From the NCBI GenBank assembly GCA_964394645.1, contig CAYMYC010000002.1, positions 28,105 through 92,104 of the forward strand: a stretch of DNA of 64,000 bases, given 5' to 3'. A model generated the notes under the pieces. That model saw only the letters and a program-made list of their open reading frames with translations. It was not told the origin of the DNA and made no database searches. A program made the translations under genes and the position numbers. Shown in pieces: positions 21,924 to 32,199 of the stretch (within the stretch, counting starts at the first letter, position 1; every line of letters starts with the position of its first letter). The stretch comes from an uncultured Gammaproteobacteria bacterium. GTDB taxonomy: Bacteria > Patescibacteriota > Microgenomatia > Levybacterales > GWA1-39-11.

Positions 21924-21995
21924 TGGCTGGGGTGGGGTTTGAACCCACGACCGCAGGGATATGAATCCTGTGCTCTACCACTGAGCTACCCAGCC
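21924..21995 (-). tRNA. tRNA-Met (anticodon CAU), elongator-type, or possibly the lysidine-modified tRNA-Ile2
   Basis: A cloverleaf was folded by hand. The acceptor GGCUGGG pairs with CCCAGCC, the anticodon loop is UUCAUAU and the T-loop is UUCAAAC. Confidence 0.75.
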
Positions 21996-22051
21996 AAACG
22001 TGTTCTTTATTGTACCAAAAATAGCCTCAAGAAGGAAATTGGGGTAATTTC

Positions 22052-22080
22052 TTGTCCGAAACGGTTGTATTCGTTATAAT
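22052..22080 (+). promoter_or_regulatory. Sigma70-like promoter (TTGTCC, 17-nt spacer, TATAAT) upstream of tRNA-Ser(GGA)
   Basis: There is a perfect -10 TATAAT at 22075..22080, a 17-nt spacer and a 4/6 match at -35. Confidence 0.5.
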
Positions 22081-22086
22081 ATGCAA

Positions 22087-22110
22087 GCTTGGGGGAGTCG
22101 GATAACAACC
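22087..22110 (+). repeat. Partial 5' copy (about 14 nt, 1 mismatch) of the downstream tRNA-Ser(GGA) gene, ending at GGAUA
   Basis: GGGGGAGUCGGAUA compared with the tRNA 5' end GGAGGAGUCGGAUA. It lies in the predicted leader of the tRNA transcript. Confidence 0.5.
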
Positions 22111-22153
22111 ATGATAGTAATCAGAACGTTGACCGATCCTCTGCGTTTTCACT

Positions 22154-22242
22154 GGAGGAGTCGGATAGTGGACCATTCCGATTGCTTGGAAAGCAATTGT
22201 GCTGAAAGGCACGCGCGAGTTCGAATCTCGCCTCCTCCGCCA
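22154..22242 (+). tRNA. tRNA-Ser (anticodon GGA), with a long variable arm and an encoded CCA
   Basis: In the manual fold the acceptor GGAGGAG pairs with CUCCUCC, the anticodon stem is AUUGC/GCAAU, the loop is UUGGAAA, the variable hairpin is GUGCU-GAAA-GGCAC and the T-loop is UUCGAAU. Confidence 0.8.
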
Positions 22243-22244
22243 AT

Positions 22245-22685
22245 CTAACTTTTTACAAGCCTTTCAATTATTGGCATGGCTTCTGTGAACACTTTTTTAT
22301 CTGATTTATAAGTTAATCTTTCCATTACTTTCTCTCTCGGAAGCCATTCTACATTTTCCATCTCATGATCGTGTTTTGTAATATCTCCTCCTGCGTAGCG
22401 CATGATAAAGTAATATACCGTTTTTTTTCTCTTAATTCCTTCCATCATATACCAGTACATGACTGGTTTTACTTCTGTAATAATTTCTCCATCCGCTCCC
22501 GTTTCCTCTTTCACTTCACGCACAGCTGTTTCTTTTTTGCTCTCTCCCTGTAGGTGTTCTTTATCCCCTATTAATCCTTTCGGAAACACCCATCCATGGT
22601 GGAATGAATGCTGTGAGACAAGAATAAAAACTGAGTCGCCTTCAACTTTAAATACTACCCCTCCTGCAGAATATTCAAATATCAT
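22245..22685 (-). CDS. NUDIX hydrolase
   Basis: The Nudix box GESKKETAVREVKEETG (GX5EX7REUXEEXGU) is present. Confidence 0.75.
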   Translation of the reverse strand: MIFEYSAGGVVFKVEGDSVFILVSQHSFHHGWVFPKGLIGDKEHLQGESKKETAVREVKEETGADGEIITEVKPVMYWYMMEGIKRKKTVYYFIMRYAGGDITKHDHEMENVEWLPREKVMERLTYKSDKKVFTEAMPIIERLVKS

Positions 22686-22796
22686 AATACTATTATATCA
22701 TTCTTTAGGCTCAAAAATTGATTTGGAGGTCAAAATACACTAAAATATCACCTACAGTCTGTCCCTTCGTGGTGAGGTAAGACGCGCTTATTGTAT

Positions 22797-22870
22797 GCAC
22801 CCGTAGCTCAATGGATAGAGCATTGGATTGCGGATCCAAAGGTTTGGTGGTTCGACCCCACTCGGGTGCG
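22797..22870 (+). tRNA. tRNA-Arg with an anticodon that reads as GCG (loop UUGCGGA) and is unusual. It is a paralogue of the tRNA-Arg(CCG) 250 nt downstream.
   Basis: In the manual fold the acceptor GCACCCG pairs with CGGGUGC, the D-arm is GCUC-AAUGGAUA-GAGC, the anticodon stem is UUGGA/UCCAA and the T-loop is UUCGACC. Confidence 0.65.
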
Positions 22871-22924
22871 CTTCGATTCTTTAGTGCAGATGTTTCCAGA
22901 TGAGAAAGGAAAGAGCTAGTGAAT

Positions 22925-23009
22925 GGAGGGTTCGCATAGTGGTCAATTGCACGAGTTTCGAAAACTCGATCCCGTAAGGGATTCACAGGTTCAAATCCTG
23001 TACCCTCCG
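22925..23009 (+). tRNA. tRNA-Ser (anticodon CGA), long variable arm
   Basis: The acceptor GGAGGGU pairs with ACCCUCC, the anticodon stem is CGAGU/ACUCG, the loop is UUCGAAA, the variable hairpin is GAUCCC-GUAA-GGGAUU and the T-loop is UUCAAAU. Confidence 0.8.
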
Positions 23010-23058
23010 CTTACATTTTGATTGAATTAAATTTATAAATCCCAAAAGTTGCGAATAT

Positions 23059-23115
23059 GCGCCTGTAGCTCAATGGATAAGGAAACCTTGTCCATTTCGC
23101 AACAAGTGAAAACAT
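23059..23115 (+). repeat. Exact 21-nt copy of the 5' end of tRNA-Arg(CCG) (GCGCCUGUAGCUCAAUGGAUA), then 36 nt of unrelated sequence, directly upstream of the intact gene
   Basis: A direct sequence comparison shows the copy ends after GGAUA, as the Ser(GGA) partial copy does. Confidence 0.6.
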
Positions 23116-23188
23116 GCGCCTGTAGCTCAATGGATAGAGTACAAGATTCCGGATCTTGCGGTTGGTGGTTCGACCCCACTCAGGCGCG
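23116..23188 (+). tRNA. tRNA-Arg (anticodon CCG)
   Basis: The acceptor GCGCCUG pairs with CAGGCGC, the anticodon stem is CAAGA/UCUUG, the loop is UUCCGGA and the T-loop is UUCGACC. Confidence 0.8.
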
Positions 23189-29698: not shown

Positions 29699-29701
29699 CT
29701 C

Positions 29702-30079
29702 CTATAATCTTTGCAGTAGCTTTGTGCTTGGTTCAAAATTTGGATTTAACTGTAGGGACTTTTGTGCATATTCCCGTGCTTTTTCTGTATCCCCTACCCA
29801 CTTCGCGTATACTGCTGCGTTATAATACACTTCAGGGTAATCTTTATATTTTGTAAAATTTTTTTCCCAAAAAACAAGGCGTTGAAGCGTTATTATCCGT
29901 TCTTTCTGGACAGTTTTATATAAGAAGAATAAATACACAGTACAAGATAATAAAAATATGAAGAGCAAAATCGCAAAGCTAAAGGCATACGCAGAATACA
30001 TTTTTTTGTTTTGAGCAATGTGATTTTTGGTTGCGGTAATGATTCGGTAATTATGCGGTAATAACTGTTTTATATTCAT
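29702..30079 (-). CDS. Hypothetical single-pass membrane protein with a TPR-like C-terminus
   Basis: The ORF is convergent with rplY. Confidence 0.3.
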   Translation of the reverse strand: MNIKQLLPHNYRIITATKNHIAQNKKMYSAYAFSFAILLFIFLLSCTVYLFFLYKTVQKERIITLQRLVFWEKNFTKYKDYPEVYYNAAVYAKWVGDTEKAREYAQKSLQLNPNFEPSTKLLQRL

Positions 30080-30167
30080 TGATCTATTATCGCAAGGGGC
30101 AGATTATATGTCAAAGCTTGACAATGTAAGAGTTTATATATATACTATGGGCGGAATTGAGCTTGTT

Positions 30168-30332
30168 TTTTTGAATTAAGAGCGTGTAGATCCCATTTAT
30201 GGGATAACGAGGAGAAGGTCTTTTGCCAACGACGGTAAAAGAGATCGGACCCCACTCACATAAAAAGTGAGGGGAGGATTTGCGGAAACCTTCAGGTTGT
30301 AATGCCAACCTAAAGAATTTTTTAACACTCTT
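30168..30332 (+). ncRNA. Candidate glmS (GlcN6P-responsive) ribozyme in the 5' leader of glmS
   Basis: It lies on the plus strand about 100-260 nt upstream of glmS. An AG-CG(U)G cleavage-site-like start at about 30181 is followed by a P1 hairpin GAUCCCA-UUU-UGGGAUA. The highly conserved core ACGAGGAG, then GG..CGG..GAUCGGACC and a CCCCACUCAC/GUGAGGGG hairpin resemble the P2/P2.1 and P3 regions of Firmicute glmS ribozymes. It was not checked with a covariance model. Confidence 0.4.
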
Positions 30333-30432
30333 TAGTAATAAGGAGAATAAAGAAAAATTTATGCACTACTCGTCTCACTTCCCCAAGGTATTTTTTTTAT
30401 AAATAGCCTTTGTTTTTTTCAATTATTTTTAT

Positions 30433-32199
30433 ATGTGTGGAATATTAGGTTATATTGGACCAAAAAAGAACGCTGCAAATATAGTACTTGATGGTTTAAA
30501 AACTCTTGAATATAGAGGGTATGATTCATGGGGTGTTGCAGTAAACGGTGAAGAAAAAATAGCCATAGAGAAGCATGTAGGAAAGATCGGTGGAGCCTCT
30601 ACTACATTATCCGAAAGTTTCTTGGGAATTGGGCATACCCGATGGGCAACTCACGGCGGAGTTACTGTGGAAAATGCTCACCCTCACTTAGACTGCAATC
30701 ACAGAATTGCCTTAGTTCACAATGGAATCGTTGAGAATTACAAAGAGCTAAAGGAAGGTTTAATGAAGCGAAAACATGTCTTTGTTTCAGGGACAGACAC
30801 AGAAGTAATAGTGCATTTAATTGAGGAGGAATTAAAAAAAGATGATAATCTTTCCCATGCAGTATTTTCTGTATTTCAAAAGCTTCATGGACTTTCAGCA
30901 GTGGTTGTAATGGATCATAAGACACACGCGCTCGTTGTTGCAAAAAACGGATCACCCCTGGTTATTGGAGTTGGAAAAGCTGAATATTTTGTAGCTTCTG
31001 ATATGTCAGCAATTCTTCCTCACACAAAAAATATGATTTTTCTTGAAGATCATATGCTTGCTACCCTTTCAGATTCTATAGAGATTTTGTCATTGAAAAC
31101 CGGTAAAAAAGAAAAACCAAATATACAGGAAATTAATTGGCAGCAGGAATCAGCGCATCTTGGAGAATTTAAGCATTTTATGGTTAAGGAAATTGCTGAA
31201 CAGCCGATTGTTATTGAGCATTTAGCAAATGAGTGTTTACCTGAAATAAAAAAGCTATCAAATGTTGTGAAAAGTGCTCATGGAACATTCTTTATTGCGG
31301 CAGGAACAGCATATCATGCATGCTTATCCGGTATTTATCTTTTTTCAAGAATTGCAAAAATTCATGTGAACTCTGCTATTGCTTCAGAGTTTAATTATGT
31401 TGAAGATTTTTTGAAGAAAAAAAGTTTGGTTATGGCGTTTTCACAAAGTGGTGAAACTATAGATGTTGTTGAACCTTTAACACGAGCACAAGAAAAGGGT
31501 GCAACAATTGCGGCTGTTGTCAACGTTATAGGCTCAACCATTTACAGAATGGCGGATTATAAAATGTTGTTAGGCGCAGGTCCTGAGAAGGCTGTTGCGT
31601 CAACCAAGGCATATATCGCAAAACTTACTACCCTTTTACTGTTAGCATACTCCCTGGACAACAAGACACAGGAGATCCTTCCGTATGTGCACATGGCTGC
31701 AGATGAGATTAGGAGTATGCTGGACAAGAAAAAACTGCAAAAAATAAAACGTTTGGCAGGAAGTCTTGCAAGCACGCAAAGCATGTTTATTATTGGGCGT
31801 GGAATGTCTTACCCAAGTGCTCTTGAAGCAGCTTTAAAAATAAAAGAAGTAACTTATATTCATACTGAAGGGCTTGCTGGGGGAGAGTTAAAACATGGAA
31901 CAATAGCACTTATTCAAAAAGGAACTCCATGTATAGTTTTTGCGCCACTGGATGAGACATATGAGGCAATAATTTCAAATGCTATTGAAATACGGTCCCG
32001 TGGGGCACGAATTATTGGTATAAGTCCTAAGAACTCTGATGCATTTGATGACTTTATAGAAGTTAAGGATTTAAAAGACGCGACTATCCTTACGCAAATT
32101 GTGCCAGTCCAACTGTTATCCTATTACATTGCTCTTGCAAAAGGGATAACTGATCCAGACAAGCCAAGAAACCTTGCAAAGTCCGTTACCGTAAAGTAA
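30433..32199 (+). CDS. glmS: Glutamine--fructose-6-phosphate aminotransferase (isomerising)
   Basis: The N-terminal MCGILGY (Cys1 nucleophile) and two SIS domains are present, in 588 aa. Confidence 0.9.
   Translation: MCGILGYIGPKKNAANIVLDGLKTLEYRGYDSWGVAVNGEEKIAIEKHVGKIGGASTTLSESFLGIGHTRWATHGGVTVENAHPHLDCNHRIALVHNGIVENYKELKEGLMKRKHVFVSGTDTEVIVHLIEEELKKDDNLSHAVFSVFQKLHGLSAVVVMDHKTHALVVAKNGSPLVIGVGKAEYFVASDMSAILPHTKNMIFLEDHMLATLSDSIEILSLKTGKKEKPNIQEINWQQESAHLGEFKHFMVKEIAEQPIVIEHLANECLPEIKKLSNVVKSAHGTFFIAAGTAYHACLSGIYLFSRIAKIHVNSAIASEFNYVEDFLKKKSLVMAFSQSGETIDVVEPLTRAQEKGATIAAVVNVIGSTIYRMADYKMLLGAGPEKAVASTKAYIAKLTTLLLLAYSLDNKTQEILPYVHMAADEIRSMLDKKKLQKIKRLAGSLASTQSMFIIGRGMSYPSALEAALKIKEVTYIHTEGLAGGELKHGTIALIQKGTPCIVFAPLDETYEAIISNAIEIRSRGARIIGISPKNSDAFDDFIEVKDLKDATILTQIVPVQLLSYYIALAKGITDPDKPRNLAKSVTVK

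Follow-up and report, generated by a model that had tools for sequence, protein, structure and literature searches.

A glmS ribozyme with two additional core hairpins in the glmS leader of a Candidatus Levyibacteriota bacterium and its relatives

The window analysed here, a 64,000-nucleotide (nt) stretch of contig CAYMYC010000002.1 (positions 28,105 to 92,104; assembly GCA_964394645.1), carries a glmS ribozyme in the 5′ untranslated region (UTR) of its glmS gene. Judged by its sequence, the element at 30181–30365 (+ strand) is very probably a functional ribozyme of Candidatus Levyibacteriota, that is, a self-cleaving riboswitch dependent on glucosamine-6-phosphate (GlcN6P). A scan of the whole window with Rfam 15 at gathering thresholds returned RF00234, the glmS ribozyme family, as the sole match other than tRNAs (30170–30370, + strand; 57.1 bits against a gathering score of 37; E 1.6e-10; model positions 1–167 of 167). 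The original prediction of a glmS ribozyme at this place therefore held: the score lay above threshold, the helices covaried in 42 distinct relatives, and both pseudoknots of the core can form. The glmS coding sequence (30433–32199, + strand) encodes 588 amino acids beginning MCGILGY, with Pfam GATase_6/7 and SIS domains. Its ATG lies 72 nt 3′ of the ribozyme on the same strand, the ribozyme ending at 30360–30365, and a ribozyme upstream of glmS is common to all 50 related loci. Among species-representative genomes, the nearest GlmS proteins belong to two Candidatus Levyibacteriota metagenome-assembled genomes (95% and 94% identity), followed by a third at 58%; because these closest loci are from Candidatus Levyibacteriota, the window is taken to come from a bacterium of the Candidate Phyla Radiation (CPR; Patescibacteria).

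All of the sequence features named in the original prediction were found on the + strand when the region 29700–30700 was read. The motif resembling a cleavage site, AG|CG, lies at A30181/G30182, and the RF00234 alignment places the predicted self-cleavage site (30181–30182, + strand) between A(−1) 30181 and G1 30182; AGCG is invariant in the five leaders of the Levyibacteria clade. The P1 hairpin (30190–30205, + strand) consists of AUCCCA (30190–30195), a UUUA loop and UGGGAU (30200–30205). The two core motifs were located at 30207–30214 (ACGAGGAG) and 30243–30251 (GAUCGGACC). The core strand ACGAGGAGAAGG (30207–30218, + strand) contains A27, the 5′ strand of P2.1 (CGA, 30208–30210) and the 5′ strand of P2 (GAAGG, 30214–30218), and the 3′ strand of P2.1 (UCG, 30245–30247, + strand), which pairs with CGA, lies within the invariant AUCGGACC (30244–30251). 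In the published core map of the glmS ribozyme, P2.2 joins residues 2–5 to 53–56, P2.1 joins 28–30 to 43–45, and the loop at 47–50 between them tolerates mutation (PMC7125110). In the window, the 5′ strand of P2.2 (CGUG, 30183–30186, + strand) pairs with UGCG (30281–30284), which is followed on the + strand by G57 and AAA (30285–30288) and by the 3′ strand of P2 (CCUUC, 30289–30293), as placed by RF00234 alignment and covariation. Both pairings of the double pseudoknot, P2.1 and P2.2, can thus form. The P3 hairpin follows at 30294–30311 (+ strand; AGGUUG, loop UAAUGC, CAACCU). Single mutants of G1, C2, G3, A27, C28, G56 and G57 do not cleave (PMC7125110), and these seven residues, used as a presence test, are all found in the window (G30182, C30183, G30184, A30207, C30208, G30284 and G30285).

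The RF00234 alignment of the window has 58 nt in place of 10 consensus positions, and this apparent insertion, when laid on the core map (PMC7125110), reads as two separate hairpins. Extra hairpin A (30219–30242, + strand) occupies the P2 loop, between the 5′ strand of P2 and P2.1, and is formed by UCUUUUGCC, the loop AACGAC and GGUAAAAGA; the Rfam consensus is without it. Extra hairpin B (30251–30274, + strand) lies in the P2.1–P2.2 loop and comprises CCC-A-CUCAC, the loop AUAAAAA and GUGAG-GGG. The CCCCACUCAC/GUGAGGGG stem of the original prediction is present at 30250–30274, but it is this second hairpin, absent from the Rfam consensus, and not the P2.1–P3 region to which it had been likened. 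Both hairpins form in all 42 distinct sequences, hairpin A despite unrelated letters, and both sides change in nine of nine counted pairs of hairpin A and seven of eight of hairpin B. The two segments between the core motifs fold far more stably than shuffled sequences in every one of the 42 distinct ribozymes. A minimum-energy fold of the whole leader (z = −2.9) shows P1, both extra hairpins, P3 and the peripheral hairpin P4.1; it was not used as evidence for the core because pseudoknots are invisible to it and P2 was mispaired.

Support for these helices came from comparison with related loci. Six (L001–L006) were identical to the window, and RF00234 matches of 45.8–62.5 bits, with insertions of 51–57 nt in the same place, were obtained in L007 and L008 (GlmS 94–95% identical) and in L087 and L088 (79%). 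In an alignment of these close relatives (A1), compensatory changes were seen in each of P1, the two extra hairpins and P4.1, and a covariance model (R1) was built from the window and the same four loci. Metagenomes were also scanned with the pattern ACGAGG-N(8-38)-AUCGGACC-N(2-32)-GCGGAAACC, and the best 80 of 86 stretches were examined. An ATG-TGY-GG start (Met-Cys-Gly) was found 91–279 nt downstream in 45 of them; once the window, L007, L008, L087 and L088 were added, these loci yielded 42 distinct ribozymes. Where the downstream GlmS carried a source name, it was always CPR (Roizmanbacteria twice, Wirthbacteria twice, Pacebacteria, "Patescibacteria group" and Levyibacteriota), most of the proteins being nameless. 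R1 recovered 50 of 50 real copies, a count that takes in the window and its four close relatives, at E ≤ 2.4e-9, and none of 35 pattern decoys.

Pairs were counted on an alignment of the 42 distinct sequences (A3), to which P2.1 and P2.2 were added as pseudoknots. Standard pairs filled 94.5% of cells as against 68.2% after shuffling, changes on both sides were seen in 30 of 40 pairs, and the covariation score was 0.612 compared with 0.175 for shuffled alignments (none of 500 reached 0.612) and at most 0.138 for slid ones. Both sides changed in five of five counted pairs of P1, where CCCA/UGGG of the window is CCCGC/GCGGG in L007 and L008, and in six of six pairs of P3 (98% of cells paired). 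P2 was paired in 100% of cells, with three of its five pairs covarying. The P2.2 pairs were kept as C-G in 40, G-C in 39, and U-G or C-G in 38 of the 42 sequences. Next to P2.2, the core pair 7–52 (A30188 with U30280 in the window) was G-C in 26 sequences and A-U in nine, both sides changing. P2.1, whose residues were assigned from the core map (PMC7125110), was complementary in all sequences, with no independent covariation because the search pattern had fixed it.

The peripheral domain was compared with the family as well. In the RF00234 alignments of the window, L007, L008, L087 and L088, P4 is formed on the + strand by GAAUUUU (30315–30321) and AAAAUUU (30354–30360), and P4.1 by CUCUUUA (30328–30334), a GUAA loop and UAAGGAG (30339–30345). 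Both helices fit RF00234 and covary among these five sequences, the arms of P4.1 varying jointly (CUCUUCA/UGAGGAG in L007 and L008, a change from U-A to C-G; CUUGUA/UACAAG in L088). The 3′ strand of the P3.1 pseudoknot, GCA (30363–30365, + strand), pairs with UGC (30303–30305) in the P3 loop; elsewhere the two strands are UAC/GUA (L008), UACU/AGUA (L087) and AAGU/ACUU (L088). An unrestricted search for P3.1 that allowed G-U pairs was noisy (4.86 for cognate and 4.33 for non-cognate combinations) and was redone with Watson-Crick pairs only, over 26 nt past P4; at least four such pairs with the P3 loop were then found in 88% of cognate as against 37% of non-cognate combinations. Of the features that define the glmS ribozyme family, the window element has those that sequence analysis can address, P3.1 less clearly than the rest at a length of only 3 base pairs (bp).

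Upstream of the ribozyme is a sigma-70-type promoter for the glmS transcript (30118–30146, + strand; TTGACA at 30118–30123, a 17-nt spacer and TATACT at 30141–30146), which matches the consensus at 11 of 12 positions and keeps both hexamers in L007, L008, L087 and L088 (alignment A1). On the basis of this promoter, transcription is predicted to start near G30153, 7 nt after the −10 box, giving a leader of about 280 nt instead of the 350 nt first proposed. Where the transcript is predicted to begin, GGAAUUGAG (30153–30161, + strand) can pair with CUCACUUCC (30374–30382, + strand), where L008 has CUCAUUCC and L007 has CUCAGUCC. This helix, termed P0, has eight pairs and one U/C mismatch in the window. 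A similar helix between leader and tail was found in most of 41 relatives (median rank of the cognate duplex energy, 5 of 40; z < −2 in 13 of 41), striking cases being L154 (GGAAAGCGAUU with GAGUCGCUUUCC), L146, L139 and L118.

We propose that transcription would start near 30153 from the promoter at 30118–30146, and that the first nine bases of the transcript would pair with 30374–30382 as P0, enclosing the ribozyme. The RNA would fold into the double-pseudoknot core (P1, P2, P2.1 and P2.2) together with P3, P3.1, P4, P4.1 and the two lineage-specific hairpins, and abundant GlcN6P would bind a preformed pocket and serve as cofactor for the cut between A30181 and G30182. The cut would separate a 28-nt 5′ fragment, with the triphosphate end and half of P0, from the glmS message, which would then have a 5′ hydroxyl (5′-OH) and decay 5′ to 3′ via RNase J, leading to less GlmS synthesis. 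In Bacillus subtilis, GlcN6P-induced cleavage of glmS leaves a 5′-OH that is an entry site for RNase J1 (PMC3997798), and a survey of more than 30,000 genomes lists rnj as one of the genes that 90% or more of CPR genomes retain (PMC12641178). By analogy, this canonical read-out through cleavage and RNase J is likely in the window strain.

A different read-out, in which cleavage mainly removes a 5′ stabiliser (P0 in the window; in many relatives the sequence GAAAGGAGG, similar to STAB-SD), is a tentative alternative to which we give appreciably less credence. In its favour, P0 joins the ribozyme's tail to the predicted 5′ end and has support from the relatives, and in 14 of the 42 related sequences AGGAG(G) precedes the cleavage site by 18–46 nt, as compared with 11.7% of random 69-nt windows; leaders with a start-less GAAAGGAGG or AGGAG(G) include L096, L105, L108, L122, L125, L126, L132 and L135. 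Structures at the 5′ end and Shine-Dalgarno (SD) elements without a start codon are classes of element that block 5′-to-3′ decay and stabilise mRNAs in organisms with RNase J (PMC3997798). The resemblance to the stabilisers of Gram-positive bacteria (the ermC leader, cryIIIA STAB-SD and 5′-terminal stem-loops) lies in the sequestering of the predicted 5′ end by P0 and in the start-less GAAAGGAGG of relatives; unlike those stabilisers, the CPR elements lie upstream of the ribozyme cut, so cleavage would remove them, and we regard the resemblance as a lead only. Weighing against such a read-out, the start site is a predicted one and P0 is weak in the window, the window clade has no upstream AGGAG, the 28-nt fragment could remain paired through P0 after cleavage, and a flanking helix may merely insulate the folding of the ribozyme from adjacent sequence.

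The ribozyme is widespread yet patchy in this part of the CPR. When R1 was compared with 80 other glmS loci, among them Saccharibacteria, Paceibacterota, Moranbacteria, Nealsonbacteria, archaea and many Firmicutes, 78 gave no match. The exceptions were the canonical ribozyme of Clostridium bornimense (31.7 bits by R1 and 106.7 by Rfam) and a single weak match in Eubacteriales. Among Levyibacteria-like loci at 58–67% GlmS identity, one had the ribozyme and six had none. The positive locus, L179, scored 108 bits and has AUCGGACU and a much longer hairpin B region (40 nt replacing 11 model positions). No ribozyme was found in L009, L089, L090, L177, L178 and L180; in L009 (Levyibacteriota, GlmS 58%) there was no glmS ribozyme match even at E ≤ 10, and in the other five the region upstream of glmS is just 5–101 nt long. 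Five of the Levyibacteria-like loci keep the order L25–TPR–glmS. The synteny L25–TPR–glmS–DUF3863 persists in close relatives that have no ribozyme and in which TPR and glmS are separated by just 9–101 nt, a presence/absence polymorphism inside one candidate phylum.

The standard Rfam model was less sensitive to the CPR form. RF00234 at the gathering score and default filters detected 11 of 20 CPR-type copies; L099, L105, L110, L119, L124, L125, L126, L133 and L137 were missed, with R1 scores of 58–84 bits. Because nine of 20 variant copies were lost in this way, the Rfam gathering score was insufficient for a survey of distribution and R1 was used instead. With about half of the copies below the standard threshold, riboswitch surveys under-count the CPR form, leaving an annotation gap.

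Several observations weigh against reading the window element as a functional ribozyme with the canonical read-out. Two positions conserved in Rfam differ, UG after CGGA being AA and G before ACGAGG being A (AA for the consensus UG after GGA is found throughout the CPR-type subclass); the RF00234 alignment has one additional nucleotide separating P2.2 from P1; the window's P3.1 amounts to no more than the 3-bp UGC/GCA; and P0 of the window, taken alone, is no different from shuffles (z = −1.3). The alignment A3 was fitted to R1, which favours the model's own structure, and since the search pattern had imposed the pairs of P2.1 and some of the core, invariance there carries no weight. No RNase J gene was found in the 64-kb window (no open reading frame (ORF) of at least 150 amino acids has an HxHxDH motif), so its presence in the host rests on the CPR-wide statistic.

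Some of these observations would fit an inactive relic, a ribozyme in decay that Rfam continues to detect after cleavage and regulation have gone: 57 bits is far under the 106.7 bits of the canonical Clostridium copy, the element deviates at consensus positions and has two large insertions in its core, and it has been wholly lost in the close relatives L009, L089, L090, L177, L178 and L180. We consider such a relic very unlikely. The same architecture is found in 43 distinct sequences whose GlmS proteins are 35–64% identical to that of the window, each helix shows compensatory changes while the catalytic residues are invariant, and where the ribozyme has been lost the intergenic region collapses to 5–101 nt, with no decay in place.

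The original prediction had also described a strong SD (UAAGGAGAAU, 30339–30348) driving a 13-codon ORF (MHYSSHFPKVFFL, 30361–30402, + strand), which might couple the state of the ribozyme to translation of a glmS that has no SD of its own. The sequence taken for an SD is present, but its UAAGGAG makes up the 3′ arm of P4.1, where it covaries with the 5′ arm, the counterparts being UGAGGAG in L007 and L008, UAAAGAC in L087 and UACAAG in L088. Likewise the ORF exists in the window, but neither its start codon nor its "SD" is conserved among the four relatives: the start is ATG in the window strain only, GTG in L007 and AAG in L008 and L087, with none aligned in L088, and about half of the stretch 30361–30402 is missing from L087 and L088. 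Conservation as a small protein was not found, since start, frame and ribosome-binding site are not kept, and coupling of ribozyme state to glmS translation through the mini-ORF is refuted as a conserved feature. Conserved bases in the ORF need no translation to account for them, because the "SD" is a P4.1 arm, the G of the ATG falls in the P3.1 strand and the body holds the 3′ strand of P0. On sequence comparison, both the "SD" and the mini-ORF belong structurally to the ribozyme and P0, with no role in translation; the ORF is mechanical only and no gene.

The absence of an SD before glmS was borne out, no purine-rich motif and no G being present in the 20 nt before the ATG at 30433; the four close relatives likewise have no G there, or almost none. 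With the first ATG taken as the start, five of 52 ORFs of 150 amino acids or more in the window have an SD-like 4-mer before it, and an SD-like motif precedes any early start candidate in 17 of 51 such ORFs, counts that are rough because the start codons are uncurated. These counts suggest that initiation is mostly SD-independent genome-wide, and with SD-less starts usual in the window, an SD-less glmS needs no special coupling device. In 19 of the 42 relatives, from other CPR lineages, an SD-like motif does precede glmS, often as the 4-nt core AAGG only. A real leader peptide, with UAAGGAG at 30339 recruiting ribosomes to a translated 13-codon ORF that couples the ribozyme to the SD-less glmS, would draw on the good SD-like hexamer at the right spacing in the window strain and on the missing SD of glmS, but it is scarcely credible given the drift of the start codon, an "SD" that tracks the P4.1 5′ arm, the loss of half of the ORF region, the base-pairing of the hexamer within the folded ribozyme and the rule of SD-less starts in the window. 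The "strong SD plus mini-ORF" within a structured leader is thus corrected to a false lead. An anti-anti-SD model, with an upstream GGAGG set against a pyrimidine tract masking the glmS SD, was rejected as well; the complementarity, judged by eye, was unconvincing, and the window clade has neither an upstream GGAGG nor an SD.

Other features of the leader and its surroundings were recorded. Between the ribozyme and the glmS start, the minimum-energy fold and alignment A1 show a weak AU-rich hairpin, AAGGU...GCCUU, followed by UGUUUUUUU (30385–30419, + strand). Its arms are AAGGUA...UACCUU in L007 and L008, it is missing from L087 and L088, and it was not called in a terminator scan; it could be a leaky terminator or mere structure. 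Three further ORFs, a 40-amino-acid one with a TTG start (30280–30402) and two on the minus strand (30111–30308 and 30197–30328), overlap the ribozyme and were treated as mechanical. The glmS promoter is one of two back-to-back promoters at 30086–30146, whose −35 boxes stand head to head in a single palindrome, TGTCAAAGCTTGACA. The minus-strand partner (TTGACA-17-GATAAT, with an extended TG) serves a small TPR gene at 29702–30079, and the + strand promoter serves glmS. The identical GlmS protein was found on at least 24 metagenome contigs with the same neighbours (ribosomal protein L25, the small TPR protein, glmS and a DUF3863-like gene); sequencing runs that contain an identical locus include SRR34704514, SRR8893623 and ERR4682460. 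Beyond Levyibacteriota, the top GlmS matches in species-representative genomes were archaeal (L010–L015 and others; 42–45% identity), and these matches, from uncultured archaea, Aenigmatarchaeota and Methanophagales, ranked above or level with other CPR lineages. The likeness could reflect an old transfer or an artefact of picking candidates by peptide words. Elsewhere in the window, five tRNA genes are clustered at 21924–23188, one on the minus strand and four on the + strand.

Compared with canonical Firmicute glmS ribozymes (Bacillus subtilis, B. anthracis and Thermoanaerobacter tengcongensis; RF00234), the element shares its position in the glmS 5′ UTR, the A|GCG site, the helices P1, P2, P2.1, P2.2 and P3, the seven residues essential for cleavage and a probable peripheral domain of P3.1, P4, and P4.1 with its GNRA loop; by analogy, a shared read-out through cleavage, a 5′-OH and RNase J would be expected. 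Unlike the Firmicute consensus, the CPR form has a hairpin in the P2 loop and another in the P2.1–P2.2 loop, an extra nucleotide between P2.2 and P1 and AA for UG after CGGA; it also differs in the very short P3.1 of the window clade, in P0, which lies outside the Rfam consensus structure, and in its CPR host. McCown, Roth and Breaker (RNA 2011) reportedly described glmS variants from Deinococcus-Thermus whose catalytic core has further stems and whose peripheral substructures are altered. Those variants would represent the same sort of departure from the Firmicute consensus, and the hosts here are Levyi-, Roizman-, Pace- and Wirthbacteria as opposed to Deinococcus-Thermus. These CPR lineages are not known to have been sequenced by 2011.

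Ribozymes of the glmS family are usually called Gram-positive and are mostly assigned to Firmicutes (PMC5473149, PMC10099748). In the literature searched, the glmS ribozyme never appeared together with Patescibacteria, nor did glmS and riboswitch appear together with Candidate Phyla Radiation, and among reports on ribozymes or riboswitches in CPR or Microgenomates none was on glmS by its title or abstract. The family is a known one, as is its likely mechanism; for the lineage-specific structural form no description was found in the literature searched; the CPR form may deserve description as a subclass. A fuller proposal, in which a CPR subclass (Microgenomates type and Wirthbacteria) with two obligatory core hairpins, P0 and often an upstream GAAAGGAGG would be ancestral to this part of the CPR and repeatedly lost, close relatives being left with intergenic regions of 5–101 nt, and in which its switch would cut off a 5′ stabiliser, is speculative and in our view rather doubtful.

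With this finding, the range of a classic riboswitch comes to include the CPR. It offers a native RNA switch, very probably under ligand control, in bacteria whose genomes are reduced, whose known regulators are few and for which there is a search for inducible expression tools (PMC11665869). The covarying hairpins also amount to a natural experiment, marking where the double-pseudoknot core tolerates whole helices.

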